From contig NC_091474.1 of the NCBI RefSeq assembly GCF_036971445.1, positions 172,856,001-172,920,000 of the forward strand: a stretch of 64,000 nucleotides of DNA, given 5' to 3'. The first letter of the stretch is position 1; every line of letters begins with the position of its first letter. Position numbers and translations under genes: made by a program. Source of the DNA: Narcine bancroftii. Its lineage: Eukaryota. Below the pieces are notes generated by a model. It was not told where the DNA came from. It made no database searches and saw nothing but the letters and a program-made list of their open reading frames with translations. This document shows positions 3,094 through 62,600 of this stretch, one piece after another.

Positions 3094-3367
3094 ACACAGA
3101 CTGTGTGTTCATATCTTCTATTTAACTTTCATTTGCTCCTTATTTTAATTTTTACTGATACAATTTTCATCCAACCAAACAAATAACTAATCCAGAGCCT
3201 CAAAAGCATTAGGCTGAGAAAGAACATGCATTGCTTGGCTTCCAATTACAAATAGGATAACTTAATGACCACAATCACTAAGCTTTCAATTGATTCCACA
3301 CAAGGTGCTCAGATGAAATCCTGTAAAGATAAAAAGGAGGCACAAGTGTTTGCCATGTTTATTGTTT

Positions 3368-3763: not shown

Positions 3764-3867
3764 GGCATTAAACAAAGCTGCCACTGCTCTCTCCCTTGAA
3801 GCTTGATTATAAACTGGCAAGTGAGTATATTCAAAGAAAGTTATCAAAGCTGTTTTTCCCTTTTAAG

Positions 3868-8150: not shown

Positions 8151-8163
8151 TGGTGACCCCAAC
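8151..8163 (+). promoter_or_regulatory. Primer-binding site, tRNA-Trp type
   Basis: tggtgaccccaac after a 2-nt spacer following the 5' LTR; matches the tRNA-Trp PBS TGGTGACCCCGAC with one mismatch. Confidence 0.8.
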
Positions 8164-8187
8164 TGGTTCAAATGTCTTTGAACCCAC

Positions 8188-14572: not shown

Positions 14573-16283
14573 ATGGTACATAGTTCATGATTTGTTAAAA
14601 ATTGTTAGAGTTAGTGGCTATTAAAAATGGGACATGGCGATTTCCTATGAAATGTTGCAAAAGTGATCATTTGAAAATGAAACAGTTGCAGAGATTAATA
14701 GAAATAAAGTGTTGCATGTTGAAACGTATCTGTTTCCTACCTTGTTAAATCATTAATAATTATTGTGAGGAATCATTAACATAATTAGTGTCTTCACATA
14801 GATAATATCATTAATAATAATATATAATTAAAGGTAAACCATGCAACTTTGTTATTTCAGAAGTGTGTACTAAACTGGTAGCCCTTTGTATTACTCAGTA
14901 CCCTTAAATTAGCTCACAGTTTCAAAAAGGTTGGTGACCCCTGATTTAGAGTATTAAATACATTTGGAATTCTGAATACTTTTATACATTGGATAAGAGC
15001 ATTATATAATCAACCTAAGCTGAAATAGTTACAAATAGACAAATATCAAAACCTTTTCTATTAGATATATTATCTAGACAAGGATAACAAGGTCCGTTAA
15101 CACCATTTTTATTTGCATTAGCTATAGAACCTTTGGCAGAAACAATTAGAAGAGATAAAGAAATTAAAGGTTTTGAGATAGATAATAAAGAACATTAAAT
15201 CTTTTTTTTTTGCAGATGATATTATAGTTTATTTAACAAAACCAGAAATATTGAATAAATTAAGTGTAAGATCAGCTGAATTTGGCTTAGTTATCTGGTT
15301 ATACAGTTAACGTTGATAGAAGTGAAGTGATGCCTATGGTTGATATGGACTATACACAAAGTGATGAAGTTCAAATGGCAAAAAGAAACAATTAAATATT
15401 TTGGAATAAAAACTGATTTATTTTAATTACATTATTTACCACTTCCTAAAAAGGTATAGGATGATTTAAAAAGATGGAAAGATTTACCGCTAACTTAAAT
15501 AGGGAATGTAAATTGTATTAAGATGAACATTTTTCCAAGAATACAATATTTGTTTCAATCATTACCCCTTTCAAAACCAGAAAAGTTTTTTTTCTGAAAT
15601 TTAAATAAAAATATACAGGAATTTATTTGGAAAGGTAAAATGACAAGAATTGTTTTGGAAAAACTAACTTGGAAATTTGAAGGGAGGAGGATTACCAAAT
15701 TTTAAAAATTACAATAAATCAGCTCAATTAAGATCCTTGTCCTCCTGTTATCAAATTGTTGAGAAAATAGCTTGGGTTCAGATTGGGATGAGTAAAATTG
15801 GAGAACCGATTCCTGAGCAATTTTTGTATGAGTGGAACAGTGAATTAATAAAAGGGAAAATAGAAGAGCCAATTTAAAAAAAAGATATTGAAGCTATGGA
15901 ATGGGATACCCAAAATAATGTTAAGAAATAATCAACTTATTCCTTTTACTTTGAATAATTCTTTATTTGATAGTTGGTAGAGGAAAGGTTTAGAGGAGAA
16001 AAGATTGTTTTATCGGATCTTTTTTTCTGACTTTTGAACAATTGAAAGATAAATACGATATACAATATAACACAACTTTGGCATATTTTATCAACTTAAA
16101 TCATACTTAAAAAGGAAATTAAGTACGAATCTAAGACTTCCGGAGCAAAGTCACTTTGAATATTTAATTACAGATACATTTATTGAGAAATTTATTATTA
16201 ATATGTATATAAAATTGCAAGATACTATGGGGAAGAAGGATTTATATAAATCTAAACAAAGGTGGTAAAAACATTTAAATATA

Positions 16284-21579: not shown

Positions 21580-24500
21580 TGTAGCGGTGCGCTTGGAGGG
21601 AGTGGGCAGAACTAGCGCTAACAGCTCCCGTCTTGTGACAGCAAGACACAACAGCCTCCTACCTACTGGCAACTAACCACTACAGCCATGAAGCATAATG
21701 ACGCAGCAGCACCCATAGGTCTACTGAGAAGCCCAGGTCTACTCAACGTAGCTACGTCATGAGGACGTTAGCACTTCAGCTGTCATGACGCCAGGTCACA
21801 TATTGTGTGTCTATATCAAGCCTGATAACACTGTGCAGTGCACTGGAATTCACTGGTAGTGTGTTGTGCTGATGGCTGGCTCCACCCCCATCTGCTCACA
21901 TATAACCCTGGTTTCCTGCCTAAACACAGAACCCTTCTGAAGACCACTGTGGGACTCTATCCCCAGTTATAAGCTAATAAAAGCATTTGTTTTTCCCTCC
22001 AGTCATGAGAGCTTTTATTCACGCTACAATTTTATTAGCTTATTCCCTAAATGATACAAGCGCTACACAAGCCAGACATGCTGATGATGAACCCTCTGTC
22101 CCCCAACGTGACTAAGGAGTTCACGTACTAGCTAGACTGCTTCCAGGCCTACCAGATGGCAACCAGAGACATTTTCCACACCGATGAACTCAGGAGATCC
22201 GCACTTGTTTTGAGGGTAGGAACGAAAGGGTATGAAGTCATCAGGGACTGCACTACATATGATGCTGCCATTGAGCTGTTGAAGGCACATTACCTAAAGG
22301 CGCTAAATGACGTACTAGCAAGGAACTGACTTGCTCTACATCACCAACGACCAGGAGAGACCATCGATGATTACCTTCTGGATCTGTGGACGCTATTAAA
22401 AGCCACTAATTTCCCCCTCTCGGCTGAAGCCCAAACAGCTTTTAACTATCTCTGGAATCCAATTGCAAAAACTGCCATGCATGCGGTGGTCGAGAATGTA
22501 CCTTCCCAAGTGGAAAGCGACACTTCAGACGTAGCCCTGGCCACTACCCTCAACTAGACAGGCAGGCTGTTTGCATTTTTTTCGCAGACATTACAAGGCC
22601 ACGAGCTCTGGAACCCATTGGTGGAAAAGGAGGCTCAAGCCATTGTAGAAGCCTTGAGGCACTGGAGACACTACCTGGGTAGTAGGAAATTTACACTCCT
22701 CACTGACCAGTGCTCTGTCGCATTCATGTTTAATAATGTCAAGATAGGAAAAATCAAAAATGAAAAAATGACAAGGTGGAGGATCGAGTTCTCCATCTAC
22801 AATTATGACATTGCCTATCAGCCAGGAGCCCTTAATGACCATCCAGATGCCTTATCCAGAGGAAGCTGTGCCTCTGCACACACTGGCCCACTGTGGTCTC
22901 TGCATAATGAGCTCTGCCATCCAGGGGTTACCCACATGGCTCATTTTGTCAAGGCGCGTAATCTGCCCTACTCCATGGAAGACGTCAGGGAAATGACCAG
23001 GTCTTGCCAGGTCTGTGCGAACTGCAAGCTGCACTTCTACCGCCCCACAAAGATGCATCTGATCAAGTCATCCAGGACTTCTCCCCTCCATGAACAAGAA
23101 CACCTTCTTCCTCTCTATCATTGATGAGTACTCCCGCTTCCTGTTCGCCATTCCATGTCCAGACACATCCACTTCATCAGTCATAAAGGCCCTAGATTCC
23201 ATTTACACCCTGTTCGGGTATCCCAGCTATATTCATAGCGACCAGAGCTATGTCAGTTCCTCATCCAGCATGACTACTAAGGAACAGGCAGTTTGAAAAG
23301 GAGAATGCCACAGTCTGGATGGCTGACAAACTGGCCCTGATGTCAAAAGGTCTTTCAGACTCATGCTGGCAGAAAGTCCTCCCTATGGCAGTCTATTCCA
23401 TCTGGTCGCGGCTATGTACCGCGACCAATGCTACTCCTCACGAGCTTCTATTCAATTTTGAAAGAAGGCCGGTATCAGGAACTACACTCCCAACCTGGCT
23501 CACCACCCCTGGTCCAGTCCTCCTCAGGAAACACACGAGGAGAAGCAAGACCAACCCCCGGTGGAAATGGTGAAAATGATACATGCTAATCCCACATACG
23601 CCTATGTGGAGTACCCGGGTGGCAGGGAGGACACCGTCTCAATCACGGACCTGGCACCTGCCTCAAGTGCCTTGCGAAATATGGAGCTCATTCTTGCCAC
23701 CCCCAGTCAGGACCTCAGGGGATCCGGTTCACGAGGAAAGTGCATCCCCTTCCACTTGAGCTGGAGACCCAGCCCACCTCTCCTACCTCACAAGGGGACC
23801 AGGAGTCCCAAGGAATCCAAGGTTTCTCGGTGCTAAGGTGCTCCACCAAGATCTCCAGACCCCTGGACCACTTAAATTTGTAAATTTGTAAATAAGTGTA
23901 TATTTTTCAACCATTTTTTTCTGGACCCATGTTCTCTGTCTTCATTCACAGTCCCTAAATTCTACAGGAAGGGATGAATGCAGTGAACTGGGATTCACTG
24001 GTAGGGTGTTGTGCTGATGGCTGGCTCCGTCCCCATCTGCTTACATATAACCCTGGTTTCCCACCTAAACCCTGAGCCCTTCTGAAGACTACACTGAGAC
24101 CCTACCCTCAGCTATAAGCTAATAAAAGCATTTGTTCTCCCTCCAGTTGTGAGAGTTTTTATTCACACTACACACTGTAATAAATGCTGCTCTCTTCGCT
24201 GGCTGGCAACTTCAAGTGTGGTCTCGTTATTTCAACATAATAGCATATGAGCACAATCATTATCTGCCACATTGGTGACCCCGACGGGTCTAGCCGGTAG
24301 CTAGACCCTACAACGAACAAGCTCAATGGCATCGTGCCAATGAGCCAGCCATAAATAATGGACACGCTCCATGGCCAAACTCAAATTAATTTGCTACAGC
24401 AACGCACCAATGAGCCACAACAAGCACCTTGCTTGCAGTAACGCTCCAATGAGCCAGGAACAAATGACGGACAGCCTGACCCAACTGAACCTACTTTGGG

Positions 24501-26319
24501 ACTGCTCCAATTGACCGTAGCTACGAATGACTCCAAATCAATCAGTGTCACATCTCAGGACAGCAAATAAATTACCAGGAGGCTAGTTGCTCTTCCCTTC
24601 ACGCTCAACTGAACGAACAGCAAGGGGCATCGTAGAAGGTTTGGAAGTTCAAAAGACTGTTTTACAACCTACTCACTCACTTTGGTGACTTGAGTAGGCC
24701 AAGCTCTTGTCTGGTGTGCCTCATGAACTGCACAACAAGTCTGGCCAACCAGTTGCAAGGTCAGGGGAAGGCTTATCAGCAACATTTTAAACTGTCTGCA
24801 GACATCAAAAGGCTGGGTGATTTTGCTCAACACAGCATAGCAGTAGCGCCTCAGTTTCTCCAGAATGTTACCACATCCAGCGCTCCATTGAGCTGAAGTG
24901 GTTGTTTATCAGCAAGTTGTCTGTAGCTGGAAGCACAGACATTTAAAATTTGCCTGTTTGAACTTTGGGAGGTTTGCATCTCAGCAGCTGTGACCGGAGG
25001 GAGCACCCGCCACCCCCCACCTCCCCACCATGTTTCACCATCCTCCCTCAGGAAGACCACTCAACCTGGGAACAACTAGCAACCCCTCCTTGAGAGAAGA
25101 AGCCTGCAATCCGGGAGACAACTACTTACTCCCCTGAGGCAAGATCACGTGACCCAGGGGGTAGCCAGCCACACCCCCCTCCCATGATGGAAGATTCTGT
25201 GACCCAGGTAGTAACCTGTGAACTAAAGCTGAAAAAAGCCACCTGTCGATGATGCCACTGAGACCTTTTCCTGCCAACAAGGCAGATTGTAATAGGTTTT
25301 CAGTCCCTCGCTCAGCACAACATTGCCTGTCGTTGATGCTGCTGTGACCTTTCCTGCAGACTAGGCAGATAGTACAGGTTTTTCAGTCCCAGCACACTAC
25401 TGATCAGCATAGCACAGCTTACCGACCTGACGGCTAGCCAGTGGACTTCCAGCAGTAATGGACAGTCGCTCTACAGACCACCACCTACCAGCTCCTGTGT
25501 GTCATTGCAGACTTCGGCTGCTACCTGACTTTCTACAGTTAACTTTTTCCTACCAGACTTTGAGATTAGCACTATGGACTCTCATATTTACCAACAACCT
25601 CCTAACAGTATGGACTTTCACTTTTGGTAATGCATCTCAAATGTTTGATAATGTTTTGGATTTCTCATGTGTCTTAACTGTAATTATCTGTAATCAGATT
25701 TTTTGCAACTGCCTGTGGTTACCTTTTGCATACGTTAAGTGTCTCACATGATTCCTACTGTAATTTATTTGTGTTGTCAATAATTGGTTGTGGCTTTCTA
25801 CTTGATTGAGCCCTGTTAGGATGTACAGTACATATCACTTCCTCCCCCAGCAACCTTCATACACGATGCTTCGGCACCGCACCACAAATGGCAAGTCTGC
25901 TCGGTTCTATGGTGGAATGTCCGCACTAATTCGGAACCGCTGAGTCAGTCGGTCGCTTACCGCTGGTTCTGTAGGGAGCTGTGTTGCGGTACACTTGGAG
26001 GGAGTGGGCAAAACCAGAGCTAACAGCTCCTGTCTTGTGACAGCTAGATATAACAGCCTCCTATCTAATGGAATCTAGCCACTACAGCCACGAGGAATAG
26101 TGACTCAGCAGCACCTGTACGTCTACTGAGAAGCCCTGGCCTACTCAACGTAGTTATGTCATGGGGTCGTTAGCACTTCAGATGTCATGACATGTTGTGT
26201 GTCTATATCAAGCCTGATAACACTGTAATAAATGCTTCTCCCTTCGTTAGCTGACAACTTCAGGTGTGATCTCATTATTTCAACATGATGGTGTACGACC
26301 TCAAACATCATCCACCACA
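21580..26319 (+). mobile_element. Non-autonomous LTR retrotransposon with a non-coding interior; 5' LTR interrupted by a Gypsy element
   Basis: LTRs 21580-24271 (split) and 25982-26319, TG...CA; TSD gagt/aagt; PBS tggtgaccccgacg (24273-24286, tRNA-Trp); no gag/pol motifs seen in 24290-25980. Confidence 0.85.
21834..24172 (+). mobile_element. Gypsy element A (no tRNA PBS), PR and RT deleted
   Basis: LTRs 21834-22028 and 23979-24172; perfect 5-bp TSD CACTG. The gag start is joined (~22395) to RNase H (EKEAQAIVEALRHWRHYL) and integrase (HPGVT..C..C, IDEYSRF). Purine tract ggaagggatgaa precedes the 3' LTR. Confidence 0.93.
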
Positions 26320-29704: not shown

Positions 29705-32700
29705 CATGGAGGGGCACATCAGAGCCAAGTGTGCAAGAAAGAAAGAAAGTGTCAACAAGGGGAAAAAAAGAGAAAAAGGGATGATCCAGATACAGAAAAC
29801 AGCCCTCTGGAGTAAAAACCGTGGCGGAAAAGGATGAAAGCCCTAGCAGTGAAACTAACGACTCAAAGGAAGACAAGGCACTGGAAGTAATGTATATTCA
29901 TGGATTAAAGGTTAAGAAATTGGAAATCTATGTCCATGTGAAAATCAACAATGAACCTCTCCAAATGGAGTTGGACACGGGGATGGGGGCAGGCAGAGGT
30001 GCCGTTAATGCAAATAAAGTTAAAACCATGACTGTTACCTCACCTCACCATTAAACACCATGGTGTGAAAACTATCATGGGGAGAAAGTCAAGGTGTTAG
30101 GAAAATTCAAAGTAAACATGGAATATAAAGGACAGACACCAAAAAGATTACCCCTCTACATCGTTGACACCAAGGAATTGGCATTGTTTGGAAGAAACTG
30201 GTTATCACACATTCAACTAGATTGGATGGAAATTGGATCCATAATGAATGTATGACTGGAGGATGTGGCCAAGCCAAAAGTGGAGCAAGTGCTTAAGAAG
30301 TATAAGACGGTTTTTGAAAATGGCCTGGAGAAAATCCAAGGAATCCAGGTGAAGTTACACTTGTAATAAGGTGTTGAACCCAAGTTCTATATGCCCAAAT
30401 TATTCCAGGCCCTGAATGGGGGAAAGAAATTCACGAAGCTGGAGTTATGCCAAGCACATCAGCAAATAGAATTGGATAAGGCCTCCAAGAAATACGTGGA
30501 AATAAATACTCATTGGGGTCATTCACCTATACCTGAATGCCAAGTGCCCCAGTAATATTTCAAGGGTTTATGCATGGCATAAATATAGGATGCTATCTTG
30601 GTGACATCATAATTACAATTAGAGACTATTCAGAGCACTGATCTAACCTAGAAAGGGTCCTAACACAATTGCAACAAGTGAACGTCCAGCTGCACCAGGA
30701 CAAGCGTGTATTTATGGTGTCTTCCGTAACATATTTGGGCTTCACAATTAACAGTGAAGGAGTCCGTATGGATACCGCTGGTACTAAAGCTGTCTGCACA
30801 ATATCCTACCCAACAAATTGAGCCAAATTGCAGTTGTTCCTGGGCTTGGTTAACCATTATTGGAAGCACATTCCAAATATGTCACTGCTGTGCAGCCCAC
30901 TGAACCAATAGTTAAGAAAAGAACAGAAATAGTGCTGGAATGAAGAGATTAGTAATGCGGTCAATCATTTTAAAGAACTAATGTCAAGCAACAATATTCT
31001 TGTCCACTATGACCCAGAAAAGGAAGTGACCCTTGCAGTGGATGTTTTGCCAGAGGGCTGAGGAGTCGTGTTGTCACAGGTGATGGAAAAGGGGAACAAC
31101 CAGTAGCTTCTGTTTTCAGGTCTTTGACGGCTTGTGAACAAATTTATGTACATCTGGAAAAATAAGGGCTATCCATAATATTGGTGTCAAACTATTTCAC
31201 CAATACTTATATGGTAGAAAGTTTACTTTAGTAACAAACAACAAATCACTGAGTTGGATTCTAGGCCCTAAACAGGGATACCAGTGCTAGCTGCAACAAG
31301 AATTCAAAGGTCGGCTATGCAGCTCACCACATATGATTATGATTCGAAACATAAACCAGCAACACAAAACGCCCATGCTGATGCCCTATCTCACTTAGCT
31401 CTACCTGAAATGAACAGAAAGATGAGATAATTAAATGGACACTGGAGGCTACAGCTATTAATCAAGAACATTTTCATTCCTTACCAATTACAGCACAGAA
31501 TGTCAGCAAAGAAGTACAGAAAGAAGCTACACTGTCAAAGGCCCTATATTTCACATTAAATGGGTGGCCCAAGGCCGAAGCCATTTCTCCTCAACTGAAA
31601 CCTTATTATACATAACCAATGAAATATCAATTGAAGAAGGTTGTTTATTATGGGGGACCAGGACAATCATTCCTATGAAATGGCAAGCTGCCATGTTATT
31701 AGAGCTCCACAACAACCATCCAGGGGTGGTTTGGATGAAAGCTTTGGCACATTTGCTTGTCTGGTAGTCATCAATGGAGATCGATATTGAACAAACAGTG
31801 AGAAGATGTTGCATTGTCAGGAGATGCAACTCAAGCCGAAGCTAACTAATGGAAATAGCCATCGTGACAATGGCACAGGATTCACATAGATGTCGCTGGT
31901 CCTTTTATGGGAGAAAACATCTTATTATTGTCAATGCATACTCTAAATGGCCAGTAGTGTCAAACATGAAAACAACACCAAACTAGACTCTGAAGTATGT
32001 TCGCATCATATGGATTACCTATAGAACTAGTCTCTGAAATCAGCCTCAGTTTGTATCTGATGCTTTTAAGGTGTTCCTATGTAATAACAATATACAAGAA
32101 ATTTTATCAGAGCCCTACCACCCAAGCATGAATGGGGAAGTGGAACATTTTGTGCAAACTTTTAAAAAGGCCATGAAAACTAACAAATCCCTAAACATAT
32201 CATGGAATCACAAACTTGCAGATTTTCTAACAGAATATAGAAACACACTGCACTCTATTACCAAACAAACACCAGCAGAATTGATGTTTGGGTGGGACTT
32301 AAGGACAAGACTTTCCACGGTGCACATGGAACAATCTACATCTCCATGTAAACCTACCAGATCTCTTGAAGTAGGAGAACAAGAATATGGGACTATCAGG
32401 ACAATAGGGAGTGTGGATTGAGGCGTGATTCTTAAAAAACTGAGTCCTTGTTCTTATTCCGTTCTGGTGGGAACTAAAATATGGAAATGCCACATCGACC
32501 AGTTAAGAGTGGGTGGATGATCCAGTGCCCAAACCCACTGCTCATGGCCCTGACGAATTTCCAGTGAGGGTTCCTAACGACAATGTTCCAGAAATATGTT
32601 TAGAAGATGATGCCCCCTTGACGTTGACTGCTCAGTACAGCTGTCCTACACTATGTCCTGCTCAGCAGTGCAGTCCAACACTACGTCTGGCTCAGCAGAG

Positions 32701-33920: not shown

Positions 33921-33935
33921 AGAGAATATCGTGTG

Positions 33936-36900
33936 TGTGGTGAACTGCTGTACACTTTATTCTGGTTTTGCCCCATCCTGTGGCTGGACCCATAGCTCCT
34001 CCCTCTTGACCCTGTATAAAGGCTCCAACACCGTAACCCCTCCCCAGAAACCCTGCATCACAGCACATGATGACCTTCCAAGTTTATTGTAAATTCTTTT
34101 GAGTTATTGATAGTGCATCGATTTTATTTACAATATTTTTTTTCAATGATGGAACAATTCTTGAAGCCTGATGAGCTGGAGATCGAACCACAATCGGCAG
34201 AAACCTGACTGGTTTAAACTCTGGCTATGCTGCTTTGTGGTCTTCCTACAAAACTTCACCAGAGTCGTGGCTATAGAGGCAAACAAACTGAACCTACCCA
34301 TCTCCCGGGTCGGACATTGAGTGTTCCCGATGATCAGGGACACCTCAGCGCACATGGAGGAAATGAACATACTCAAGGACCAGTACAGGAAGGAAGTTAA
34401 TGAGGTATAAACCAGGCACATGCTGGCTACCCACAGACAGCGACCATAAATCGAGCAACAAGTTCCTTTGTGCCCTGCATGGACTTGCATGAGTGTGCAA
34501 CTTCTAGTCAGTGCTGGCTGCCCAGAACAAGGAGGACATGATCCAGGATGCCTATGCTGCAGGTGTCAGGTCAGACTAAGCGCGCCAGAGGCTACTCGAG
34601 CAGAGAAGTTAGACTTAAGAGGGGTGATCAACCTCATGAAATCGCTGGAGATCACACTCTGTAACATTGATGCATACTCGGCAAATGGCGTGTGGGCCAC
34701 CATCTTGGGACTCAGGTCCACAGCCAGCAGCCCGCTACCACATTCAATAAAGCAAACATACCACAGCTGCAGTATCCCACAAGCACCTGAAGTGCTACTT
34801 CTGTGGCCAACCAAAGCATCCCAAAAGCACTGCTTGGTGAAAGATGCTATGTGTGCAGTGCAAGATAAAAGGGCACTACACGAAGGTATGTCAATTGCAG
34901 CTGCCTTCCAGCTCCAGCGCTGCCGCATGTGCAGCACGGGAGCTGTCATCTTAGCTGCCACCAACTTCATCTTGGATGCAACCAACTCTGGGGACAACTA
35001 CACCACCGCATGGGCACCACCATTATCCTCCCAGACCATGAGTCAACACAGGCCAGACTGTGAACTGACACTAGCCTCTGATGTGCTGGAACAAAACAGT
35101 CCACATCAACCCTTCTGGTCTATGATGGACATCTCAATCTCAATCAACAATCAGGTGACAAGATGCCTTTTTGATAGCGGGAACACTGAGAATTTTATCC
35201 ACCCCAACACGGTGCAGCATCAATCCCTTAAAGAAAAGCCAGTAAGCTATAAAGTTGCCTTGGCCTCAAAGTCCCACTCAGCCAAGATCCGCAGCTACAT
35301 TACCATGACACTGACCATGCAGGGCATGACTTACAGGAACTCTAAACTCTTTATCATACCACAGCTCTGCGCACCAGTGCTGCTGGGGTTGGACTTTCAG
35401 TGCCATCTCAAGAGTGTCACAATGCAATACGATGGTCCCCTGACCCCCCAATAGTCAGCAACCTGTGGTTTATCAGCATGCCACCCCTTCCTCCGCTATC
35501 CCAACCGACACGCGGTTTATCTACTCTCTGTATCGACCTCCCCACCACTGTTCGCGAACCTCACCTCCAACTGTAAACCAGTCACTACAAAAAGCAGACG
35601 ATACAGTGAAGGGGACAGGGCATTTATTAAAGCAAAAATCCGGTGACTACAGAATGAGGGGATCATCGAGCCCAGTACCAGCCTGTGGAGAGCCCAAATA
35701 GTGGTGGTCAAGGGTGGACACAGGATGCCGATTGATTATAGCCAGACTATTAACTGCTATATACAGCTGGATGCGTATACCCTCCCTCACATTGCGAACA
35801 TGGTCAATTAAATTGCCCACTATCATGTCTTTTCCACGATGACCTGAAATCAGTCTACCACCAGCTTCCCACCCATCTGAGGAGAGCCCGTACACCACCT
35901 TTGAGGCAGATGGCCACCTCTACCATTTCCTAAAGGTCTCTGTTTTCCAGCGGAGGGTGGACCAAAATGACCTGCGTGCTGCCTTCCCCTACTTGGATAA
36001 CGTCAAGATCTGTGGCCATCAAGCAATCCAATACCTAGGTATTAGACTACGAATCACCATTTAAATGGCAAACACAAGCAATCCGATACCTAGGTATTAG
36101 ACTAGATAATAATCTAGGCCATCTATACAGATTAGATTATCAGCCATTAATAAAAAAAATTCCAAGATGACTTAGAACAATGGAAAGATTTACCACTAAC
36201 ACTGATAGGAAGGGTTAATTGCATTAAAATGAATATCTTCCCAAGGATACAATACCGATTTCAAGCGTTACCAATTCCCTTAACAGAGAAATTCTTCAAT
36301 GAGCTAAAGAAAATAATAAGGAAATTCTTATGGAAAGGGTGGAAACCGAGGATAGCGCTAGATAAATTAACAGAATGGTACAAACAAGGGGGCTTACAGC
36401 TACCAAACTTAAATAATTATTATAAAGCAGCACAATTAAGATATCTATCAGATTTTTATCAAACAAGGGATAAACCAGATTGGACCAGGTTAGAGCTAGA
36501 TAAAATAGGGGAGAAGGTACCTGAACATATGCTATATAAGTGGGATGAAAAACTGGTGCAACAGGGGAATTCACCAGTACTGCACCATCTGCTCAACATT
36601 TGGAAGAAGATTCACGTAGAAAGGAAAAAAAACAAATTACCAACTTCCAAAATTATTATTGATGCAAAATCAACTAATCCCTTTCACAATAGATAACCTT
36701 TCCTTTAGAGAATGGGAGAGAAAAGGGATCAAAAGAATAGAAAATTGTTTTTTGGGAAATAATTTATTATCTTTTGAACAAATAAAGTACAAATATGGAA
36801 TAACTCACGGTACAATGTTTGCATACCACCAACTGAAAACCTACTTAAAGGACAAATTGGGAAGCGGGCTGAGGTTACCAGAAGGAAGCAGCTTTGAATA

Positions 36901-39613
36901 TGTGATTACAGACACAATGATAATTAAAAGATTTATAACAAGCATGTACATCAAGTTGCAAGAGAAAGAGAATGATGAAATAAGCTGTAAACCCAAAGAA
37001 AAGTGGGAACAGATCTAAACATAAAGATAAAAAATGAAAAATGGGAAAAGCTATGCTCTGGAACTATAAGAAATACAATAAACATGAGGTTATGCATGAT
37101 ACAATATAATTGGTTACACAGGCTATATATCACGCCCCAAAAGTTAAATAAATGGGACACAACAGTATCAGATAGATGTTTTTGCTGTAAGAAGGAAACG
37201 GGAACAACAATACATGCAATTTGGGCATGTGAGAAAGTGGAAAAGTTTTGGGAAGAACTAAATCAGGTATTAAATAAAATTACAAAAAGCCACATACCAA
37301 AATATCCAGAGATCTTTCTTCTAAGTAATATTAGAAGTAAAGAATTAGGCCTCAAACTGGATGAAGCACAAAAAAGATTTATTATGATAACCTTAGCTGT
37401 AGAAAAAAAATGTATAATGTCAACCTGGAAATCAGAAGAGAGCCTGAGAGTACAGCAATGGTACATAGAAATGAATAAATGTATTCCATTGGAAAAAATA
37501 ACATATAATTTAAAAAATAAACTCACATTATTCAAACAAATTTGGGAACCGTACATGGAACACAACAGAGAGGGCCTACCATGGACCTCCACCCCCTAAA
37601 ATGACAGAATGAGAAGAAGACGAAATGAACTGACCCAGTGTGTAAAAGTAGATGACACAATTTTCTTGTTTATTTTCATTGTGTGATGACATTGTTTAAT
37701 GTATCGTATATGTTGAACGTTTAGTGGGTAGGGAGGGGGTTGGGAAGGAGGGAGGGAAGGGAGGGGGGAAAAGGGGAGAAAATGACACTGTATATTCAAG
37801 AAGGAAATGTTTGTATTTTGGTTAATATGGTTCATAGTGTGAAAAATAAAAACATTTTTTAAAAATGGCCATGACCTGCAAGATCATGATGCCAACCTCC
37901 AGAAATTCCTCACAGCAGCTAAAGACCTAAACCTCACCTACAACATCGATAAATATGTTTTCCACACTACCCACCTGTCAATCCTTGGCTGTGTTGTGGA
38001 GAATGGGGTTATTGGCCCCGATCCCAACCCCATGTGCCCTCTGTTGGAGTTCCCCCTTCCCTACAGCCTCAAGGTACTGAAAAGTGCCAGGGGTTCTTTT
38101 CTATTATGCCCGGTGGGTGCCCAATTATGTGGACAAAGCCCACCCCCTTATCCAGTCCACATCCTTCCCCCTGACAAGAGAGGCCCAGGGAACCATTTGA
38201 TGAATAAAAGAGGACTTTGCTAAATCTGCAATGTATGTGGTAGATGAATCTGCCCATTTCAGGTCAAGAGCAACGCAGTCAATTTCACCCTGGCCACCAC
38301 CCTGAACCAGGTAAGTCGGCCAGTGGCCTTTTTCTCCTGTAACCTCCAAGGCCCTGAAATCCAACTCTCCTCCATCGAGAAGGAGGCTCAGGCAATAGTT
38401 GAGGCAGTATGGCACTGGAGGCATTACCTGGCCTGTAGATACTGTACCCTGTTCATGGACCAAAGGACCATGGCATTCATGTTTAACAATAAACAGCGGG
38501 GTAACTATAACTATGATATTCAGTATCGGCCAGGGAAGCTTAACAAGCCCCCAGACTCCCTATCCTGAGGATCATGTGCCAATGTCCAGATAGACTACCT
38601 CAAGATCTTCCACAATGACCTCTGCCACCCAGCTGACACGAGACTTTTCCACTCCATAAAATCTCGTAACCTGCCATACTCCATCAGGGAGGTCAGAGAC
38701 ATGTTGAGGGACTGCTGAGTCTGCGCGGAGTGCAAACTGCACTTCTATCAACCAGATAGGGCACACCTGGTAAAAGCCATATTGTCATTTGAATGCCTGA
38801 GTATAGATTTCAAAGGCCTCCCTCCCCTCAACCAACCACAAAATATATTTCCTCATGGTCATCGATGAGTATTCATGTTTCCCTTTTGCCATCCCTTGCC
38901 CAAACATGACCTCCACCACAGTCATCAACTTGTATACTCTATTTGGGTACCCATCATACATCCACAAGACTGGGGGTTCTTGTTCATGAGCTGCAAGCTG
39001 CACCAATACCAGCAGGGCCACTAGTTATAACCCCCGTGGGAATGGCCAGGTGGTGAGGGAGAATGCCCACCATATGGAAGGTCATCCTCCTTGTCAAGTT
39101 CAGGGGGCTGCCAGTCTCTCACTGGCAAGAGGTCCTTCCCAAGGTACTCCACGCAATCAGGTCACTGCTATGTACTGCCACCAATGCTACCCCGCACAAA
39201 TGAATTTTCTCCTTCCCCAGGAAGTCACCATACCCCCAGCAAGTCGACACAGCGCGGGAGGTCCAGAAAGAATCAACGACTGCAGCTTACAGCAGAGCAC
39301 CCGACTCTCTGTCGGTCTTAATGAAAGACCAGATCGTTGGACAGACTTAACCTCTAAGACTTTGTGCCCCACATCACTTCTCCCAGACAAAAAAAATGGT
39401 GAATATAGTGAACTACTGTACATTCTTTAATCTGGCTCCACCCCATCCTGTGGCTAGACCCGTGGCTCCTCTCTCTTGACCTGTATAAAAGCTCCAACAC
39501 CACAACCCCTCCCCAGAAAGCCTGGTCACAGCATAGGACGACCTTAAAGTTTATTGTAAATAAAAGCCTATAGTTCTGTAACTCTAGTCTTTTGAGTTAT
39601 TGATAGTGCATCA
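33936..39613 (+). mobile_element. Gypsy element B (no tRNA PBS), interrupted by an L1
   Basis: LTRs 33936-34120 (with an internal deletion) and 39404-39613; TSD gtgtg/atgtg. Domains: gag (LKPDELEIEPQS), PR (CLFDSGNTENFI, PVLLGLDFQ), RT (IDYSQTIN, YLDN), RH (EKEAQAIVEAVWHWRHYL) and IN. Confidence 0.92.
36020..37865 (+). mobile_element. 5'-truncated L1 inserted in the RT of Gypsy B
   Basis: 7-bp TSD TGGCCAT (36013-36019, 37866-37872); ORF2 C-terminal ORFs at 36229-37599 (DRCFCCKK..HAIWAC, LEKITY); AATAAA and A-tail. Related to the L1 at 59629-64000. Confidence 0.93.
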
Positions 39614-40063
39614 ATGTGCAAGCAGCAAAGATTTAATTTAACTTGGGCATCATGTTTGGTACAATCCCATGGGGAAAATGGCCTGTTCCAGTACTGTACT
39701 GTTTTATGTTCTATGTAACATTCAGATCCACATCCACACCAACTGAATACGGCTTCAGTACCAGCTGTTATGTTAAATGTCAGTTGTGTAACTCAAGTCA
39801 ACTTATCAAATTCTGATTAAGCACTCCTCCTGGTTTATGGATGAGATTACTTGCAGCTCACTATATTCAGCTTAGGTTACTTTTATTGTTGCCAGTTCTG
39901 CTTGTAGTTTGGTGTGCTCCAGCTTCACACAGCACTTCACTGTTAACTTCCTTTCCACCACTCTGCTTTGTTTCTTGTACTGAATTAATTTCAGGTCACG
40001 TGCCTGAACATAGCATAGTCATCTTTTTCTCTGCCTACTACAGCCATGACAGCAGTTGGCTCC

Positions 40064-51992: not shown

Positions 51993-54900
51993 AACTCTCT
52001 GTACCTGCAGGAAGACCACCTAAGGGGCTGACTCCACCTGGCCTGCTGTCAATCAGCTGACCTGAATATCAACCTGAGCTGGCCCCTCCTGAGCCAGTCA
52101 AATGGGGAGCCACCAAGCCTTGGACTAGTGTTCAGAGTTTTACTGGAATAAAGCCTGTTGTACAGTCTTTAAGTTTTGTGCTTGCTTGCTGCTACCTCAG
52201 CACACCAGAATTTATTCCAGTAAAAATTTTTAAAGAGGGACCATGGAGACGATCTGGAGCCTGGAGATCGACCCCCAACACCCAGATGCCCAGGCATACT
52301 TTAAGATCTGGAAGCACGCGATCGAGGTGATCATCCTAACACAAGCTGAGGCGATCAACACCAACCAGAAACGGCACATGATGCTCCACAATAAGCTGGG
52401 CCCACGAGTTTTCCAGGCCATCAAGAACTGCTCGGACTACAGACCTGCGATGGCTGTACTAGAGAGCATGTACAAGCATCCAACAAATGTGATCTGTGCC
52501 CCGTACCTGCTCAGCACCCAGGTGAGACGGCAGATGCCTATTTGGGGGACCTGCGTGAGCTAGTCTGCCCGTGCCGAACCAAGACTGGAGTGACCCAAGG
52601 GGAAGTGGAGCAACTGATCTGGGATGCCTGCATGTGAGGGCTGCGCTTGAGGAGCGCCCGACAGCAGCTGCTGGAGGAAAGTATGGCCTCACTTACAAGG
52701 ACAATGGAGGTAGTACGCTCCCTGGAGGCTGCAGCTGATCATCATGCCGAGGTCTTTAATGCCCAACTCCCCCAACCCCAGGCCTGGCAGATGGAAATGA
52801 CCGCCGTCGCCAAAGGGTTCTACATGGAAGAGACGATCACAGCTGTCGGTGCAGCTTGCCCCTGCAAGTACTGTGGGTCCTGGAATGTGTCCAACAGGCG
52901 ATCCCACAAATGCTGTCCAGCAAGGAACTTGCCTTGTTCCCAATGGAGGAAGAAAGGCCACATCACAAAGGTGTGCCTTTCCAGGCCCGTTGGAAGTGCA
53001 GCGACCCTCTGCAACCAACTGGGAGCTCTCCCAAACATTGCCACGTGTGAGGACTGGGTAACGCCATTATTCACCCCTCCACTTCCACCCTCACCACTGA
53101 TGTCACTTCCAGCCCAGCCACTGACCCACACAGCTGAAGTGTGCTCACCCCAGGCACCACCATTTTCCTCCCGACAACTTCCACTGCATCGAAGACGTCA
53201 CTTCCACTCGCTCGGATGACATCATCTCTAGCTTCATTGCTGGTCGGTCACCCAACTGCACCAATGCCATGTGCATCCACTGGGCACCGCCATCTTGAGC
53301 CAGCTAGCTCCTGACAGCCACAACACGCTCACATCGCCTATCCAACTCACCCCACACCCTGAAAGGAAGCCGCTGGACGCTACTCGCCACACATCCATCG
53401 GGCAGCAGTGACTCAGTCCCTGAGATGGTCCTAGCGTCCCCTTAAAAGGGGACATTCCCCATGGACTTGGGTGCTCAATGATGGGCATTGCTGTTAATGG
53501 GAAGGTAACAAAATGGCTGTTCAATAGCGGTAGTACTGAGAGCTTAATGAACTAGAATGTTGCCTGGACATTAAAAATCTATCCCACAAACTTTTCCATT
53601 GCTTTCGCAGCCCATGACCACTCCATCATGGCCCTCAGGCGCTGCTCAGTGGAATTGACAGTGGGGGGGAGGTCATACCAAGGGTTCATACTCTTGGTCA
53701 TGCCCCAGCTCTGTGCCCCAGTCCTCTTAGGGCTGGACTTCCAGTGCAACCTCCAAAGTCACATCCTCACCTTTGGCTGCCTCCTTCCCCTACTCGCACT
53801 CCACAGCACACAGCCCTGTGACTGCCCCCAGTTCACCTGCGGCCTCTCCATACTACGGGTAACCCCTTCAGCCCTCTTCAACTGCCTTACATCGTACTAC
53901 AAGCCCATAGCTGCCAAGAGCAAGCGCTAATGCGCGGCCAACATGGCCTTCATTAAGAAGAAGTGAGGCAGCTTCTGGCGGAAGGTATCATACAGCCCAG
54001 CACCAGTCCCTGGAGAGCCCAAGTCCTAGTGGTAAAAGGGAGTAGCAAACCAAGGATGGTCATCGATTATAGCCAGACCATAAACTGGTAACAGCCAACT
54101 GGACGCCTACCCCTACAGCTGACATGGTCTTCTCGACAATTGACTTAAAGCCGACCTGCAGGCCTATCCACGCCCAGGATAAACTTTGAGGCATATGGGT
54201 GCCTCTACCAGTTCTGCCAGGTCATGTTTGGGGTCACTAACGGGGTCTCTGTTTTCCAGCGGGAGATGGACTGCATGGCAGGCCAGCAAAACCTAATAGC
54301 AACCCTCCCTTACTTGGGCAATTCCACCATCTGCAGCCATGACCAGCAGGTCCACGATGACAACCTGGATTGATTTCTCTGGACGGCCAAGGAGCTGAAC
54401 CTCACTTACAACAAAGAGAAGTGCATGTTCAGCACCACCCGCCTCTCCATTCTAGGGTACCTCGTGGAACATGGTATCATCGGTCCTGATCCAGAACGCA
54501 TGCAGCCATTAATGAAACTGCCCCCCCCCCCTATATGATCAATGTCCTCTGCAGGTGCCTTGCGCTTTTCTCCTATTACTCCCAGTGGGTCCCCCGTTTT
54601 TTGGACAAGGTCCGCTCACTGGCCCAAGCCACCACCTTTCCCCTCCCCCCTGAGGTGCAAGCAGCTTTCATTCATATCACCGATGCCACAAAGCATGCAG
54701 TGGATGAGGACACACCATTCCAGGTGGAGTGCGATGCCTGTGATGTTGCTCTCATGGCCATCCTCAACCAAGGGGGCCGACCCATGGCCTTCTTCTCCAG
54801 GTCCCTCCACGGTTCTGAGCTCAGGCACTCCACCATTGAAAAGAAGGCCCAGGCGATCAGGAAAGCAGTCCACCACTGGCACCACTATCTGGCAGACAGG

Positions 54901-57206: not shown

Positions 57207-59628
57207 TGTAGCGGCTGCTACCACTGGAGAGGTTATGCACACTGCAGGAGTGAATTCAACACTGCTTTATTGCGCTGGCAGCTCTGGTTATAAAGGGCTC
57301 AGAAGCCCATCACTGACTTCATCACCACTCCAAACTGGTAGCATTACGATTCACTTCCTGGGATCGGTCCTTTAGTGCTACCCAGGGAGCGGCCAATCAG
57401 TGAGTCCCTCACATCCCCGGGTATGACTCTTTCTCTAGCTCCACCTGATTGGCTGCCACTGGCTAGCCCATCGGAGTGGGGTGCTGCAGCCCGTGTGCTG
57501 CTCAGTTGAGTGTCAACTTTGAAGACTGTAGCCCGTCTTGGCCAGCTGTGCAGGCTGCGGGATCCTGGTGTTGCCTCTTCGGGCATGGCACCTTCAGCGG
57601 CCCGCTGAATGACCCCCCCCCCCAAGAATCGGTGCTAGGTGAGGCCTTGTGCTTGGGAGGTCTACCCCTTCGGCATGGGATTGGGTCAGGGATCAGGTGG
57701 TCAGAGTCAAAGAATGCTGGCTTGAGCCAGTCCAGGGTGAAAATCCCATTTCTCCCCCCCAATATCCAAAAGACATGTTGACCTGTTGTGTCATATTACC
57801 TTGTATTGACCTAGGCCTCTGTAGTGGGGGTCTGGGTGTCCCGCATCTGACAAAAACATATTTACAAGTCATAAGTTCTTTATGTACAAATGTCGTCCAT
57901 GACCCGTGCTGCTTTGGCTGTGTCAGGGTGAGTGTTCTCAGGCAGTTCTGCAGGCGGATCAAGGCAGCCTCAGGGAAATCATCCCCAGTGTCTCTGGTGG
58001 CCAGAACTCCCGCAGAATTACTAATGGTGCGTCGTACACCATTTTGGCTGCAGAAACCTCTAGGTCCTCTTTAGGAGTGGCCCGGATCCCCAGGAGTACC
58101 CATGGGAGCTCATCCACCTAGTTAGGGCCATTGGGTCTGGCCATGAGAGCTGCTTTAAAGTGTCAATGGAATCGCTCTATCAAATTATTGGTCTGAGGGT
58201 GGTAAGCCATGGTATGGTGGAGCTGAGTACCCAGAGCATTAGTGAGATTAGACCAGAGGCCAGAGGTAAATTGGGAGCCCCTGTCCGAGGTTATGTGCTC
58301 TGGAACCCCGAACCTAACCACCCAGTTGTGCACATTTCCATAGAGGTCTCTGGCAATGGGATGGCTTCCGGCCATCTGGTCGACCTGTCTACTAGGGTCA
58401 GTAAGTAGCGTGCGCTTCTGGATATTGGTAGGGAGTCAACCAGATCCACGTGGATGTGGCTGAAACAGTGTTGTGGTGGTTGAAATGACTGTGGGGGGCT
58501 TTAGTGGGGGTATGGATTTTCAAGGCCTGGCTGACCTCTTTGCGGAAGCCATGCCAGACAAATTGACTAGCAACCATTTTAACAGTCATTTTGATAGCGG
58601 TGTGTGCCAAGTTGTGTATAGCCTCAAAAATGCGCCTCCTCCAGGTAGTGGGAATGATTAGACGAGGCTTACCCGAAGACGTGTCGCACAGGACAGTCTG
58701 CTTCCCAGGACCAATCTGTACGTCCTCCAACTGGTGGCTGGTAATTGCAGTGTGATATGCGTCAATGTCCTTGTCCACTGCCTGTACTTCAGCCAGAGCC
58801 TTATAGTCAATGCTAGATGTAGAGATGTATACCGCCTGTATCATAGGACGTGACAGGGCATCGGCCACCACGTTGGATTTTCCTGCAATGTGCTGAATGT
58901 CAGTAGAAAGTTCTGAAATATATGAAATGTGCCTCTGTTCCCTGGCTGACCATGGGTCGGAAGCCTTAGTGAAGGCGAAGGTGATGGGCTTGTGGTCTGT
59001 AAACATTTGGATCTTCCTGCCCTCAAAGAAGTATTTAAGATGTCTGATTGCCAGGTACAATGCCAGGAGTTCTCTACCAAAAACATTATATTTCAGGTGC
59101 CCGCAAATGTCTACTGAAAAAGGCAAGAGGTCGCCAGTGTCCACTCACCCACTGTTCTAAGACTCCCCTATTGCTGTATCAGAAGCGTCCACTATGAGAG
59201 AGGTGGGGGCATCAGCTTTAGGATGTATCAGGAGGGCGGCGTTATCCAGGGTGTCTTTTGTTGCCTGGAACACATCGGATGCCTCTTGGTTCCTCAAAAT
59301 CGTCTTCTTCGTACCAGTCATGAGGCAGAATAAAGGTTTCATGGTACGAGCCACCCCTGGCAAGAATCTGTGGTAAAAATTCACCATGCCAATGAATTCT
59401 TGTAGTCCACTTACTGTTGTAGGCTTGGGAAATGCCCGAATGGCCTCTGCCTTGTTGAATAGTGGTTTAGACCCATGGCAGTTGATCCTGTGACCTAAAA
59501 AGTCAATCGAGTCTTTGCCAAACTGGCATTTTGCTGGATTAATTGTCAGGCCAAACTCACTCAACCTGTGGCACACTGTCTTATGTGAGTGGCGTGTTCG
59601 ACACGATCACGGCTTGCAATCAGAATGT
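57207..59628 (-). mobile_element. Gypsy element (same clade as 7852-12155), 3' half, cut off by the L1
   Basis: Minus strand reads GLTINPAKCQFG, LQEFIGMVNFYHRF, TDHKPI and ITSDRGSQFTS; G-run PPT at 57613-57623; LTR ends gtagcagccgctaca at 57207. Confidence 0.88.
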
Positions 59629-62600
59629 CTTTTTTTTTGATTTTTTATTTTTCACACCATAAACCACATTGACCAAGATACATACATTTTCCTTTTCAAA
59701 TATATACAGTGTCATTTTCTCCCCCCCCGTCCCTCCTCCCATCCCACCCTCCCAACCAACCCCCCCATTCATTTAAAGTACAAAATCTAAGACACATTAA
59801 ACCAGTCAAACAATGTTGTCATTCAATAAAAATAAACAAGAAATTCCACTAAGTCAATTCTTTTCATTTCCTTCTCCTTTTGTTCATTTAGGTGGTAAAT
59901 GTCCCCGGTAGGTTTTCTCTATTGTGTTTCATGTATGGCTCCCATATTTGTTCAAATATTTCAATATTATTTCTTAAATTATATGTTATTTTTTCTAATG
60001 TAATGTATAGCCTGTGTATCCAGTTATATTGTATCATACGTAACCTCTTATTTATTGTATTTCTCATCGTTCCAGAGCATAACTTCTCCCATGTTTCCTT
60101 CTTTATCTTTATATTTAAATCTTGTTCCCATTTTTGTTTAGTTTTACCATTTGTTTCCTCATTCTCCTTTTCTTGCAGTTTAATATACATATTTGTTATA
60201 AATCTTTTGATTGTCATTGTATCTGTAATCACATATTCAAAGTTACTTCCCTCTGGTAACCTCAGACTACTTCCTAATTTGTCCTTCAAGTTGGATCTCA
60301 ATTGGTAATATGCCAACACTGTATCTTGAGTTATATTATATTTATCCTTCATTTGTTCAAAGGATAATAATCTATTTCCTGAAAAACAATTTTCTATTCT
60401 TTTGATCCCTTTTTCTCCCATTCTCTAAAGGAAAGGTTATCCATTATAAAAGGGAGTAACTGATTTTGCGTCATTATTAGTTTTGGTAATTGGTAATTTG
60501 TTTTATTCCTTTCTACATGAATCTTCTTCCAAATATTGAGCAGATGATGTAGTACTGGAGAACTCCTACGTTGTACCAATTTTTCATCCCATTTATATAA
60601 TATGTGTTCAGGTATCTTTTCCCCTATTTTATCTAGTTCTAATCTAGTCCAATCTGGCTTTTCCCTTGTTTGATAAAAATCTGATAGGTATCTTAATCGT
60701 GCGGCTCTATAATAATTTTTAAAGTTTGGGAATTGTAAGCCTCCTTGTTTATACCATTCTGTTAATTTATCTAGTGCTATCCTCGGTTTCCCCCCTTTCC
60801 ATAAAAATTTCCTTATTATTTTCTTTAACTCCTTGAAGAATTTCTCTGTCAAGTGTATTGGCAATGCCTGAAATAGCTATAGTATCCTTGGGAAAATGTT
60901 AATTTTAATACAGTTTATCCTTCCTATTAGTGTTAGTGGTAAATCTTTCCAATGCTCTAAATCGCCCTGTAATTTTTTCATTAGTGGATAATAATTGAGT
61001 TTATATAGATGGCCGAGATTTTTATTTATTTGTATACCTAGGTATCTTATTGCTTGCATTTACCATCTGAATGGTGATTCTTTCTTAAATTTTGAGAAAT
61101 CCGCATTATTCATTGGCATTGCTTCACTTTTATTTACGTTAATCTTGTAACCCGACACTTCTCCATATTCCTTCAATTTCTTATATAATTCTTTTATTGA
61201 TATTTCTGGTTCTGTTAAGTATACTATAACATCATCCGCAAATAAACTGATTTTATATTCCTTGTCTTTTATTTTTATCTCTTTTATATTATTTTCTGTT
61301 CTTATCAATTCTGCTAGTGGTTCTATAGCTAACGCGAATAATAAGGGTGATAGTGGGCATCCCTGCCTTGTTGATCTGCTTAAATTAAATTGCTTTGATA
61401 TATATCCATTTACTGTCACTTTCACCAATGGCCCCTTAATCCAATTAATATACTTCTCTGGTAAACTGAATTTTTGCAATACTTTGAGTAAATAATTCCA
61501 TTCTACTCTGTCAAAGGCCTTCTCTGTGTCTAAAGCAACTGCTACTGTTGGCGCTTTACTCCCTTCTACTGTATGAATTAAGTTAATAAATTTACAAATA
61601 TTGTCTGTTGTCCGTCTTTTTTTAATAAATCCAGTTTGGTCTAGACTTACCATTTTAGGTACATAATCTGCTAATCTGTTTGCTAATAGTTTAGCTATCA
61701 TCTTATAATCTGTGTTAAGTAATGATATTGGTCTGTATGACGCTGGTGCGAGTGGATCTTTCCCTTGCTTTGGTATTACTGTAATTATTGCTGTTTTACA
61801 TGAATCTGGTAAGCTTTGTGTTTTGTCAATCTGGTTGATTACTTCCAGGAGGGGAGGAATTAATAAATCTTTAAATGTTTCATAGAATTCTATTGGGAAT
61901 CCATCCTCTCCTGGTGTTTTATTATTTGGTAGTTTTTTTATTATCTCTTGTATTTCTACTATTTCAAATGGTTCTGTTAATTTATTTTGTTCCTCTATTT
62001 GTAATTTTGATAGTTCAATTTTAGTTAAAAATTCATCTATTTTGCCTTCTTTCCCTTCGTTTTCAGTTTGGTATAATTGTTCATAGAATTCTCTAAAGTT
62101 TTCATTAATCTCCGTTGGATTATATGTGATTTGTTTGTCTTTTTTCCTTGATGCCAATAACATTTTCTTAGCTTGTTCTGTCTTAAGCTGCCATGCTAGA
62201 ATTTTATGCGTTTTTTCCCTAGTTCATAATATTTCTGTTTTGTCTTCATTATGTTCTTCTCCACCTTATATGTTTGTAGTGTTTCATATTTTATTTTTTT
62301 ATCTGCCAATTCTCTTCTTTCAGTTGTATCTTCCTTCATTGCTAATTCTTTTTCTATATTTACTATTTCCCTTTCCAACTGCTCTGTTTCCTGATTGTAG
62401 TCCTTCTTCATCTTGGTTACATAACTTATTATTTGCCCTCTAATGAACGCTTTCATTGCATCCCATAGTATAAACTTATCTTTCACTGATTCTGTATTTA
62501 TTTCAAAGTACATTTTAATTTGTCTTTCAATGAATTCTCTAAAATCCTGCCTTTTAAGTAGCATGGAGTTTAATCTCCATCTATACATTCTTGGAGGGAT

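Follow-up and report, generated by a model that had tools for sequence, protein, structure and literature searches.

To our knowledge, Tf1-type elements are the only ones in which self-priming of reverse transcription has been proven; for a few lineages of plants and fungi it has been predicted. Mag uses a tRNA primer site. HIV-1 is also primed by a tRNA, and its poly(A) hairpin holds AAUAAA in a helix that is local to R and lies at the RNA 5' end. In Tf1, as described in passages of two studies, pairing involves the first 11 bases, and the RNase H cut falls between bases 11 and 12 (PMC7175516, PMC4600332). The Tf1 cDNA is reported, in a passage of a third study, to bear a copy of the primer (PMC11042837). 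Outside Tf1/sushi, self-priming is predicted for TAR elements of the copia superfamily (Houba and Osr-1) in part of PMC6317226. Animal Ty3/gypsy elements of the Mag lineage/Cigr-1 clade are described as widespread in marine animals in part of PMC6238403.

The window analyzed here is a 64,000-nt stretch of the Narcine bancroftii genome. Element B, at positions 33936 to 39613, is an old Ty3/gypsy LTR retrotransposon with the following features.

33931 to 33935, + strand: left target-site duplication GTGTG, 4 of 5 letters like the right copy ATGTG
33936 to 34120, + strand: 5' LTR of 185 bp, with a 26-nt deletion after 34094 and the end changed from CA to CG (LTR-LTR alignment)
34015 to 34020, + strand: putative TATA-like box TATAAA in the 5' LTR
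34085 to 34094, + strand: 5' LTR remnant of the target, 10 nt of the predicted primer segment
34122 to 34135, + strand: primer-site slot TTTTATTTACAATA, complementary to the LTR target, without TGG
34146 to 36019, + strand: gag, protease and the start of RT, all broken (tblastn with P0002)
36020 to 37865, + strand: nested LINE 3' fragment within the RT gene, with a 7-bp duplication, TGGCCAT, on its flanks
37866 to 39227, + strand: remainder of RT, RNase H and integrase, broken, in the order RT-RH-IN
39384 to 39403, + strand: degenerate polypurine tract ending in GGTGAA
39404 to 39613, + strand: 3' LTR of 210 bp (LTR alignment)
39484 to 39491, + strand: putative TATA-like box TATAAAAG in the 3' LTR, with the target 3' end 82 nt downstream
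39552 to 39565, + strand: complete 14-nt target TATTGTAAATAAAA in the 3' LTR, with AATAAA at 39559 to 39564 and GCC next
39614 to 39618, + strand: right target-site duplication ATGTG (flank comparison)

Paired LTRs, a target-site duplication and a polypurine tract mark element B as an LTR retrotransposon. The domain order PR-RT-RH-IN, with an RT that is nearest to Ty3 among solved structures, places it in Ty3/gypsy. The LTR pair is identical at 160 of 182 aligned positions (K2P 0.135). The LTR ends have decayed to TA.../...CG in element B and are intact TG...CA in other family-B copies; solo LTRs of the family also bear 5-bp flanking duplications, as read by eye. A zf-RVT match in the nested LINE fragment is under the Pfam cut-off. 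This copy is dead, and it is ordinary for family B.

The original prediction placed the 5' LTR end at 34120, followed by a single base (34121) and then the slot, and these coordinates hold. As it also claimed, the slot is the exact reverse complement of 39552 to 39565; the match has no extension on either side, and the target lies 48 nt inside the 3' LTR end. The 26-nt deletion in the 5' LTR was confirmed as well, and it leaves the element's own 5' LTR with 10 of the 14 pairs (34085 to 34094). The 14-mer contains a single G and could be taken for a chance A+T-rich match or for an inverted duplication that arose locally in a single copy. However, an exact 14-mer complement is expected by chance at about 2e-6 in a 210-nt LTR of the same composition, and in 28 of 30 family-B 5' junctions at least 12 of the 14 letters agree with the slot. 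The pairing also recurs in unrelated LTRs. These results rule out both explanations, to which we give practically no weight.

We then considered a tRNA-primed class, which was rejected. A tRNA-type TGG within 6 nt was found at none of the 30 family-B junctions. It is present in two control gypsy elements of the window (TGG at 8151 and 24273), which we take to belong to the CsRN1 clade.

7852 to 8148: LTR of a CsRN1-type gypsy element
24172 to 24271: part of an LTR of a CsRN1-type gypsy element

The slot is therefore family-wide and non-tRNA (28/30 versus 0/30), and this site, complementary to the element's own LTR, adjoins the LTR end. The outcome that would have refuted the original prediction, family-B copies without the complement or with a tRNA site, did not occur. 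Pairing at 14 of 14 positions with the copy's own 5' LTR persists in only 8 of the 30 copies, and at 12 or more in 20. Deletions near the target occur in further family-B 5' LTRs (L033, L034, L043 and L046), but we do not take them as a pattern because the query itself had such a deletion. Element B, like its sister families, lacks a tRNA site and in its place has a 14-letter match to its own terminal repeat, so the group likely self-primes. Judging from this arrangement and by analogy with Tf1, element B probably used its own RNA to prime reverse transcription, through the LTR-paired site instead of a tRNA.

Equivalent pairing with different letters was found in two other elements of the window, A and C, and in one young family of the genome.

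21969 to 21982 and 22030 to 22043, + strand: target and slot of element A, a 14-nt complement with other letters
52138 to 52152 and 52211 to 52225, + strand: target and slot of element C, a 15-nt complement with other letters

The original prediction had treated A and B as divergent instances in which both strands changed together. The divergence itself stands, in that the 7 upstream nt of the target differ and AATAAAA (7 nt) is common. However, the LTRs of A and B cannot be aligned, so they represent separate families rather than two co-changed copies. It is between families that the slot co-varies with the LTR target. The genome holds thousands of candidate copies of the lineage. Further relatives were taken from a metagenome scan, in which 42 of 80 loci reached the Gag start; 5 of these were dropped (less than 100 nt upstream) and 37 were scored. 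A complement of 9 to 19 nt was present in 19 of 21 families from the metagenome contigs. No relatives were found in a viral collection. The 26-family counts below rest on a single chosen copy for each family; the metagenome families L136 and L137, which failed the screen, are excluded.

The slot lies one base after the LTR CA in 24 of 26 families, and the LTR end was set independently by LTR pairs in seven (L066, L074, L079, L102, L106, L126 and L141). The orientation of the pairing brings the target 3' end to one base from the LTR end. That 3' end is TAAA(A) in 24 of 26 families, and the next letters are GCC or ACC in 21 of 26. This combination resembles a fixed cut site. Helix positions 1 to 11 comprise 285 Watson-Crick pairs among 286, with no G-U and with three or four pair types at positions 4 to 11, although this count is partly circular because the search began from perfect complements, and the families are related and thus not independent. 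Mismatches and wobbles increase from positions 12 to 15. In a swap control, runs of at least 11 were found with the family's own LTR in 25 of 26 families and with foreign LTRs in 2 of 650 pairs. Over 4176 nt L078 is 98.4% identical to L079, yet pair 7 differs between them by a matched change on both sides, as expected if the primer templates the slot. Unmatched changes were seen at slot position 2 in L077, at position 14 in L075, L082 and L095, and also in L208 and L212.

The swap control also bears on a primer of another origin, either a small RNA of the host or an internal fragment of a tRNA, with the LTR match being secondary. Half-tRNA primers are known in copia elements, according to part of PMC6317226. 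However, the slot varies by family yet always fits its own LTR, and an Rfam scan gave no family matching the LTR or leader (there was one chance-level match, in the integrase region). We therefore regard a host-derived primer as very improbable. ARAGORN and a bacterial promoter scan were uninformative.

The slot had been described in the original prediction as antisense to the poly(A) signal. This overlap was borne out in 6 of 7 families sampled in the genome, but it is not defining. AATAAA or ATTAAA lies inside the target in 17 of 26 families, and the targets of the other 9 contain neither. In L070, L071 and L091, which form one sub-branch, a canonical hexamer lies 5 to 28 nt downstream, outside the helix; L137 has a second AATAAA outside the helix, by eye. 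From these comparisons, the invariant is the geometry, namely the one-base offset, the TAAA(A) end and the Watson-Crick helix, rather than the poly(A) hexamer.

The helix had a mean pair probability of at least 0.79 in 25 of 26 predicted folds. With the slot, the unpaired probability of the hexamer was at most 0.12 in 23 of 24 families; without it, the hexamer was mostly more open (from 0.01 to 0.28 in B and from 0.01 to 0.48 in the young family). Whole-region folding energies were ordinary, with z of -0.70 for B (the deleted copy), -0.54 for C and -1.40 for the young family; element A stood out at -3.35. The predicted sequestration and the 17 targets with a canonical hexamer would suit a helix that serves to mask the 5' LTR AATAAA against premature polyadenylation, with some other primer in use. 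However, 9 targets have no canonical hexamer, and both the hexamer of the L070, L071 and L091 sub-branch and the second AATAAA of L137 lie beyond the helix. Folding also predicts a paired hexamer in A, L068, L072 and L089 when the slot is left out. For masking, the one-base offset need not be fixed and G-U pairs need not be absent, and as the sole role it leaves the element without a primer site. We consider this sole role quite unlikely. Masking may be a second function: a self-priming helix would, as a side benefit, mask the AATAAA of the 5' LTR.

TATA-like boxes lie 82 to 86 nt upstream of the target 3' end, and 19 of 25 young-family copies have an Inr match at -52; both point upstream of the target. 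The TATA spacing hints that the paired segment lies inside R and is not the first base of the RNA, and suggests that it begins about 35 to 40 nt inside the RNA. In the element C family, 8 of 12 copies have an Inr match at -19, which points to the target. None of the sequencing runs with the young-family LTR or leader was recorded as RNA; four contig sets from one study were guessed to be RNA. When these contig sets were aligned to the young family, their ends did not pile up, and a single A-rich loose end, 12 nt past AATAAA in 2 contigs at 0.65 agreement, was too weak to use.

A further point is which copy of the target acts as primer. The sequence is identical in both LTRs and the copies are thus indistinguishable from DNA, so the primer could be the copy near the RNA 3' end, of the same or a second molecule, trimmed or cut after TAAAA. 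That copy lies near the expected RNA 3' end, and we only infer the upstream transcription start. However, the 5' copy lies just 36 to 87 nt from the slot in every family and folds onto it, and the R remnant needed for strand transfer on that molecule would be lost if the 3' copy were cut. A 3'-copy primer is improbable in our estimate, and we favor self-priming from the 5' LTR copy.

In this self-priming scenario, the RNA would start upstream of the target, by analogy with Tf1, and the target would fold back onto the slot. The element's RNase H would cut right after ...UAAAA, before GCC, leaving a 3'-OH from which RT would copy the one-base spacer, U5 and the remaining R. The short R remnant, from the cut to the poly(A) site, would mediate the first strand transfer. 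Plus-strand synthesis would copy the primer and thereby rewrite the slot, and we propose that the helix stays purely Watson-Crick for this reason. We also propose that the AATAAA overlap follows from geometry, because the cut must sit slightly upstream of the poly(A) site; the overlap may additionally mask the poly(A) signal in the 5' LTR only. More tentatively, this widespread, chromodomain-less animal Ty3/gypsy lineage might self-prime by cutting within R, at a conserved TAAA(A)/RCC site about 50 nt from the cap, with the same helix burying the 5' LTR poly(A) signal in most families. A single RNA switch would then license full-length transcription and make the primer, an arrangement not known to have been described for Tf1.

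If self-priming is correct, the abundance of this animal lineage means that priming without a tRNA has arisen or survived more broadly than stated in the literature we found. Such elements would be expected to evade tRNA-fragment control aimed at primer sites, and annotation tools requiring a tRNA site would under-call them. For RNase H cutting of an RNA duplex, the fixed TAAA(A)/RCC end is a testable handle. Because a poly(A) signal overlaps the helix in some natural variants and not in others, these offer a handle on how LTR elements avoid 5' LTR polyadenylation.

Neither the literature nor motif searches of part of the PMC8556966 and PMC6238403 supplements yielded a sequence-level clade reference, and the ESM Atlas returned generic Gag clusters only. 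Like Tf1/Tf2 of Schizosaccharomyces pombe, Tj1 of S. japonicus and Tf1/sushi, the lineage is Ty3/gypsy with a non-tRNA, LTR-complementary site by the 5' LTR. Unlike the Tf1/sushi chromoviruses, it has short LTRs (150 to 290 bp) and lacks a chromodomain: the integrase C terminus gave no Chromo match at E up to 0.01 in four of four full polyproteins, and none of 16 chromodomain loci in the genome adjoins an integrase. Unlike in Tf1, the helix is 9 to 19 nt long and terminates at TAAA(A), in most cases over the poly(A) hexamer, and the TATA spacing suggests a target away from the RNA 5' end. Plant Tcn1 (gypsy) and TAR (copia) are likewise predicted from sequence to self-prime, but they differ in having plant hosts and in belonging to the chromovirus branch or to another superfamily. 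By description only, the lineage is like the Mag lineage/Cigr-1 clade in its single ORF and short LTRs. Gag has two Cys/His knuckles in P0001, P0002 and P0005, which we take to be Mag-like. The CsRN1-type window elements share Ty3/gypsy membership and short LTRs beginning TGTGG. They differ in having TGGTGACCCC, presumably a tRNA-Trp match, after the LTR, and their RT is 27% identical and falls far outside the lineage in a quick-method, unrooted tree of partial rows, in which the placement of element A is unreliable. As in the HIV-1 poly(A) hairpin, AAUAAA is sequestered in a predicted helix; unlike in HIV-1, it pairs in this lineage with the primer site, which is found behind the 5' LTR alone.

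The window copy of element B, an old Ty3/gypsy LTR retrotransposon, is dead, and its parts are laid out as follows.

33936-39613, element B, flanked by GTGTG and ATGTG
33936-34120, 5' LTR of element B
36020-37865, LINE fragment inserted in element B, between 7-bp duplications
39404-39613, 3' LTR of element B

The two LTRs are identical at 160 of 182 aligned positions (K2P 0.135), and the interior is a broken gag-PR-RT-RH-IN. The LINE piece is a 3' fragment nested within the RT gene, and related pieces lie at 15448-15590. As the original prediction stated, a slot at 34122-34135, one base past the 5' LTR, is the exact reverse complement of a target in the 3' LTR (39552-39565). The match does not extend beyond either end, and its probability by chance, from composition, is about 2e-6. 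The predicted deletion in the 5' LTR is also present; 26 nt are missing after 34094, and 10 of the 14 pairing bases remain. The end of an LTR is determined by the end of the primer. The slot looks like a primer site, because it lies one base off the LTR end, its paired 3' end is aimed into U5, and there is no tRNA site nearby.

We then searched for family B in the 3.3-Gb animal genome that holds the window; the named proteins nearest to those of this genome are from rays. With the 3' LTR as the query, there were 1954 candidates, 40 of which were scored and 30 fetched; the slot was seen in those fetched matches that continue into the internal region. The 5' junction gave 976 candidates, and 30 were fetched, including the window copy. 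Family-B copies lacking the complement or carrying a tRNA primer site had been named as evidence against the slot. However, in 28 of the 30 fetched junctions, the 14 bases past the one-base spacer agreed with the slot of the window copy at no fewer than 12 positions (exactly in 19), and none of the 30 had TGG within 6 nt, so the prediction holds in this sample. The absence of TGG is specific, because two other gypsy elements of the window carry TGGTGACCCC at the primer-site position. Pairing with the copy's own 5' LTR was found at 12 or more positions in 20 of 30 copies and at all 14 in 8; the remaining copies are decayed or deleted.

The window also holds a gypsy element with a DUF7041 Gag and a tRNA-type primer site at 8151 (7852-12125), which served as a control. 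Within 21580-26319, element A (LTRs at about 21834-22028 and 23979-24171) is internally deleted and nested in an LTR that belongs to a gypsy element of the TGG type, the primer site of which is at 24273. Other gypsy-type lineages are represented by decayed pol fragments at 58398-60876 (minus strand) and 30594-31577, and a degenerate tandem array of five overlapping copies, spaced 47 to 106 nt, lies at 3363-3788.

The same layout, in other letters, was found in elements A and C and their genomic copies (15 fetched for each), in a young family whose LTRs are identical, and in three more families of this genome. Between families A, B, C, and the young one, the LTRs align only over 13 to 19 nt at the target. 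In metagenome contigs, 42 of 80 loci extend to the Gag start; 5 were dropped for short upstream sequence, and the other 37 were grouped into 21 families. A complement of 9 to 19 nt was present in 19 of the 21, and in 18 of these 19 its length was never reached in 40 shuffles. By eye, L137, one of the two families scored as negative, does have a complement of 14 nt, slightly beyond the 70-nt search window, and the other (L136) appears decayed. In a quick RT/RNase H tree built without named references, B falls inside the lineage, in one cluster (SH-aLRT 100) with the ray proteins, the young family, and C, and the TGG-type element is far away.

We compared one copy from each of 26 families, namely the 19 metagenome positives and 7 from this genome. 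The counts lean toward the result, because the families are related and the longest perfect complement was taken as the helix. With that bias, 24 of 26 families have CA and one further base ahead of the slot, 24 have a target ending in TAAA(A), and in 21 the target precedes GCC or ACC; the loop measures 36 to 87 nt. Of the 286 cells for pairs 1 to 11, 285 hold a Watson-Crick pair and none a G-U pair. Helix positions 4 to 11 each use three or four pair types, and the order breaks down from position 12 to 15 onward. A run of at least 11 was found between the slot and its own LTR in 25 of 26 families, versus 2 of 650 comparisons with a foreign LTR. LTR pairs set the LTR end independently in seven of the 26. 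Two loci, L078 and L079, are 98.4% identical over 4176 nt, yet both sides of pair 7 differ. Unmatched changes are also present (L077, L075/L082/L095, L208, and L212). We conclude that the signature is real and lineage-wide.

The slot had been described as antisense to the poly(A) signal. This is true of six of the seven families of this genome. One family of this genome (L201 and L202) has a target that ends in AGTAAA instead of AATAAA. It is not the rule of the lineage, because the hexamer at the target end varies (AATAAA in 11 families, ATTAAA in 6, GTTAAA in 5, TTTAAA in 1, and AGTAAA in 1), is absent in 2, and in L070, L071, and L091, which share one sub-branch, a canonical hexamer lies 5 to 28 nt downstream, outside the helix. 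In most families, folding predicts that the hexamer is buried with the slot and more open without it. Therefore, occlusion of the hexamer at the 5' LTR is a possible second role of the helix. The total folding energy is unexceptional, save for A. In family A, an LTR hairpin (21973-22020) pairs AATAAAAGC with GCTTTTATT in U5; it would mask the poly(A) signal of the 5' and 3' LTRs alike and would either compete with the slot helix or stack on it.

Priming probably follows the same steps as in Tf1, the self-primed Schizosaccharomyces pombe element, in which the first 11 bases pair and RNase H cuts between bases 11 and 12 (PMC7175516, PMC4600332); here the putative cut would come directly behind TAAAA. 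Strand transfer needs part of R to be left over ahead of the poly(A) site, and this would account for a cut at or just before the hexamer. Although their LTRs are unalignable, A, B, C, and the young family all have TATA-like boxes 82 to 86 nt upstream of the 3' end of the target, and in 19 of 25 young-family copies an initiator match, by consensus only, lies 32 nt past the box. From this spacing, RNA would start about 53 nt before the cut, and the primer would then be a 5' piece of roughly 50 nt, with pairing confined to its last 14 to 16 bases. However, 8 of the 12 copies of C have their initiator match, likewise by consensus only, at -19, and most metagenome families have no TATA-like box at such spacing. 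On balance, we somewhat favor an upstream RNA start for these four ray-like families, which would be a possible difference from Tf1. By eye, all four have small hairpins in the stretch from the TATA-predicted start to the target (L141, L203, L206, and L219; A, B, and C included), with matched changes between L141 and L206/L203. Some invertebrate-like families (L131, L135, L126, and L115) have, by eye, a splice-acceptor-like branch point, pyrimidine tract, and CAG 15 to 25 nt upstream of the target; these may point to an intron in the LTR or to trans-splicing close to the primer.

Self-priming is known for Tf1/Tf2/Tj1, sushi, and fungal elements and predicted for plant Tcn1 and TAR (PMC4600332, PMC6317226, PMC6934838, PMC5006619, PMC5341516). 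The portions of PMC3601003, PMC6238403, and PMC8220671 and supplements that were searched gave no clade name for the lineage. Searches of the open literature gave no description of the primer site of this lineage; an earlier mention is possible in Repbase, GyDB, or most subscription papers, which were outside this scope. Tf1 and sushi belong to the chromodomain class, whereas none of four polyproteins of B's lineage has a chromodomain, so we tentatively keep the lineage apart from Tf1/sushi. Its sequence features suggest a variant of the known self-priming.
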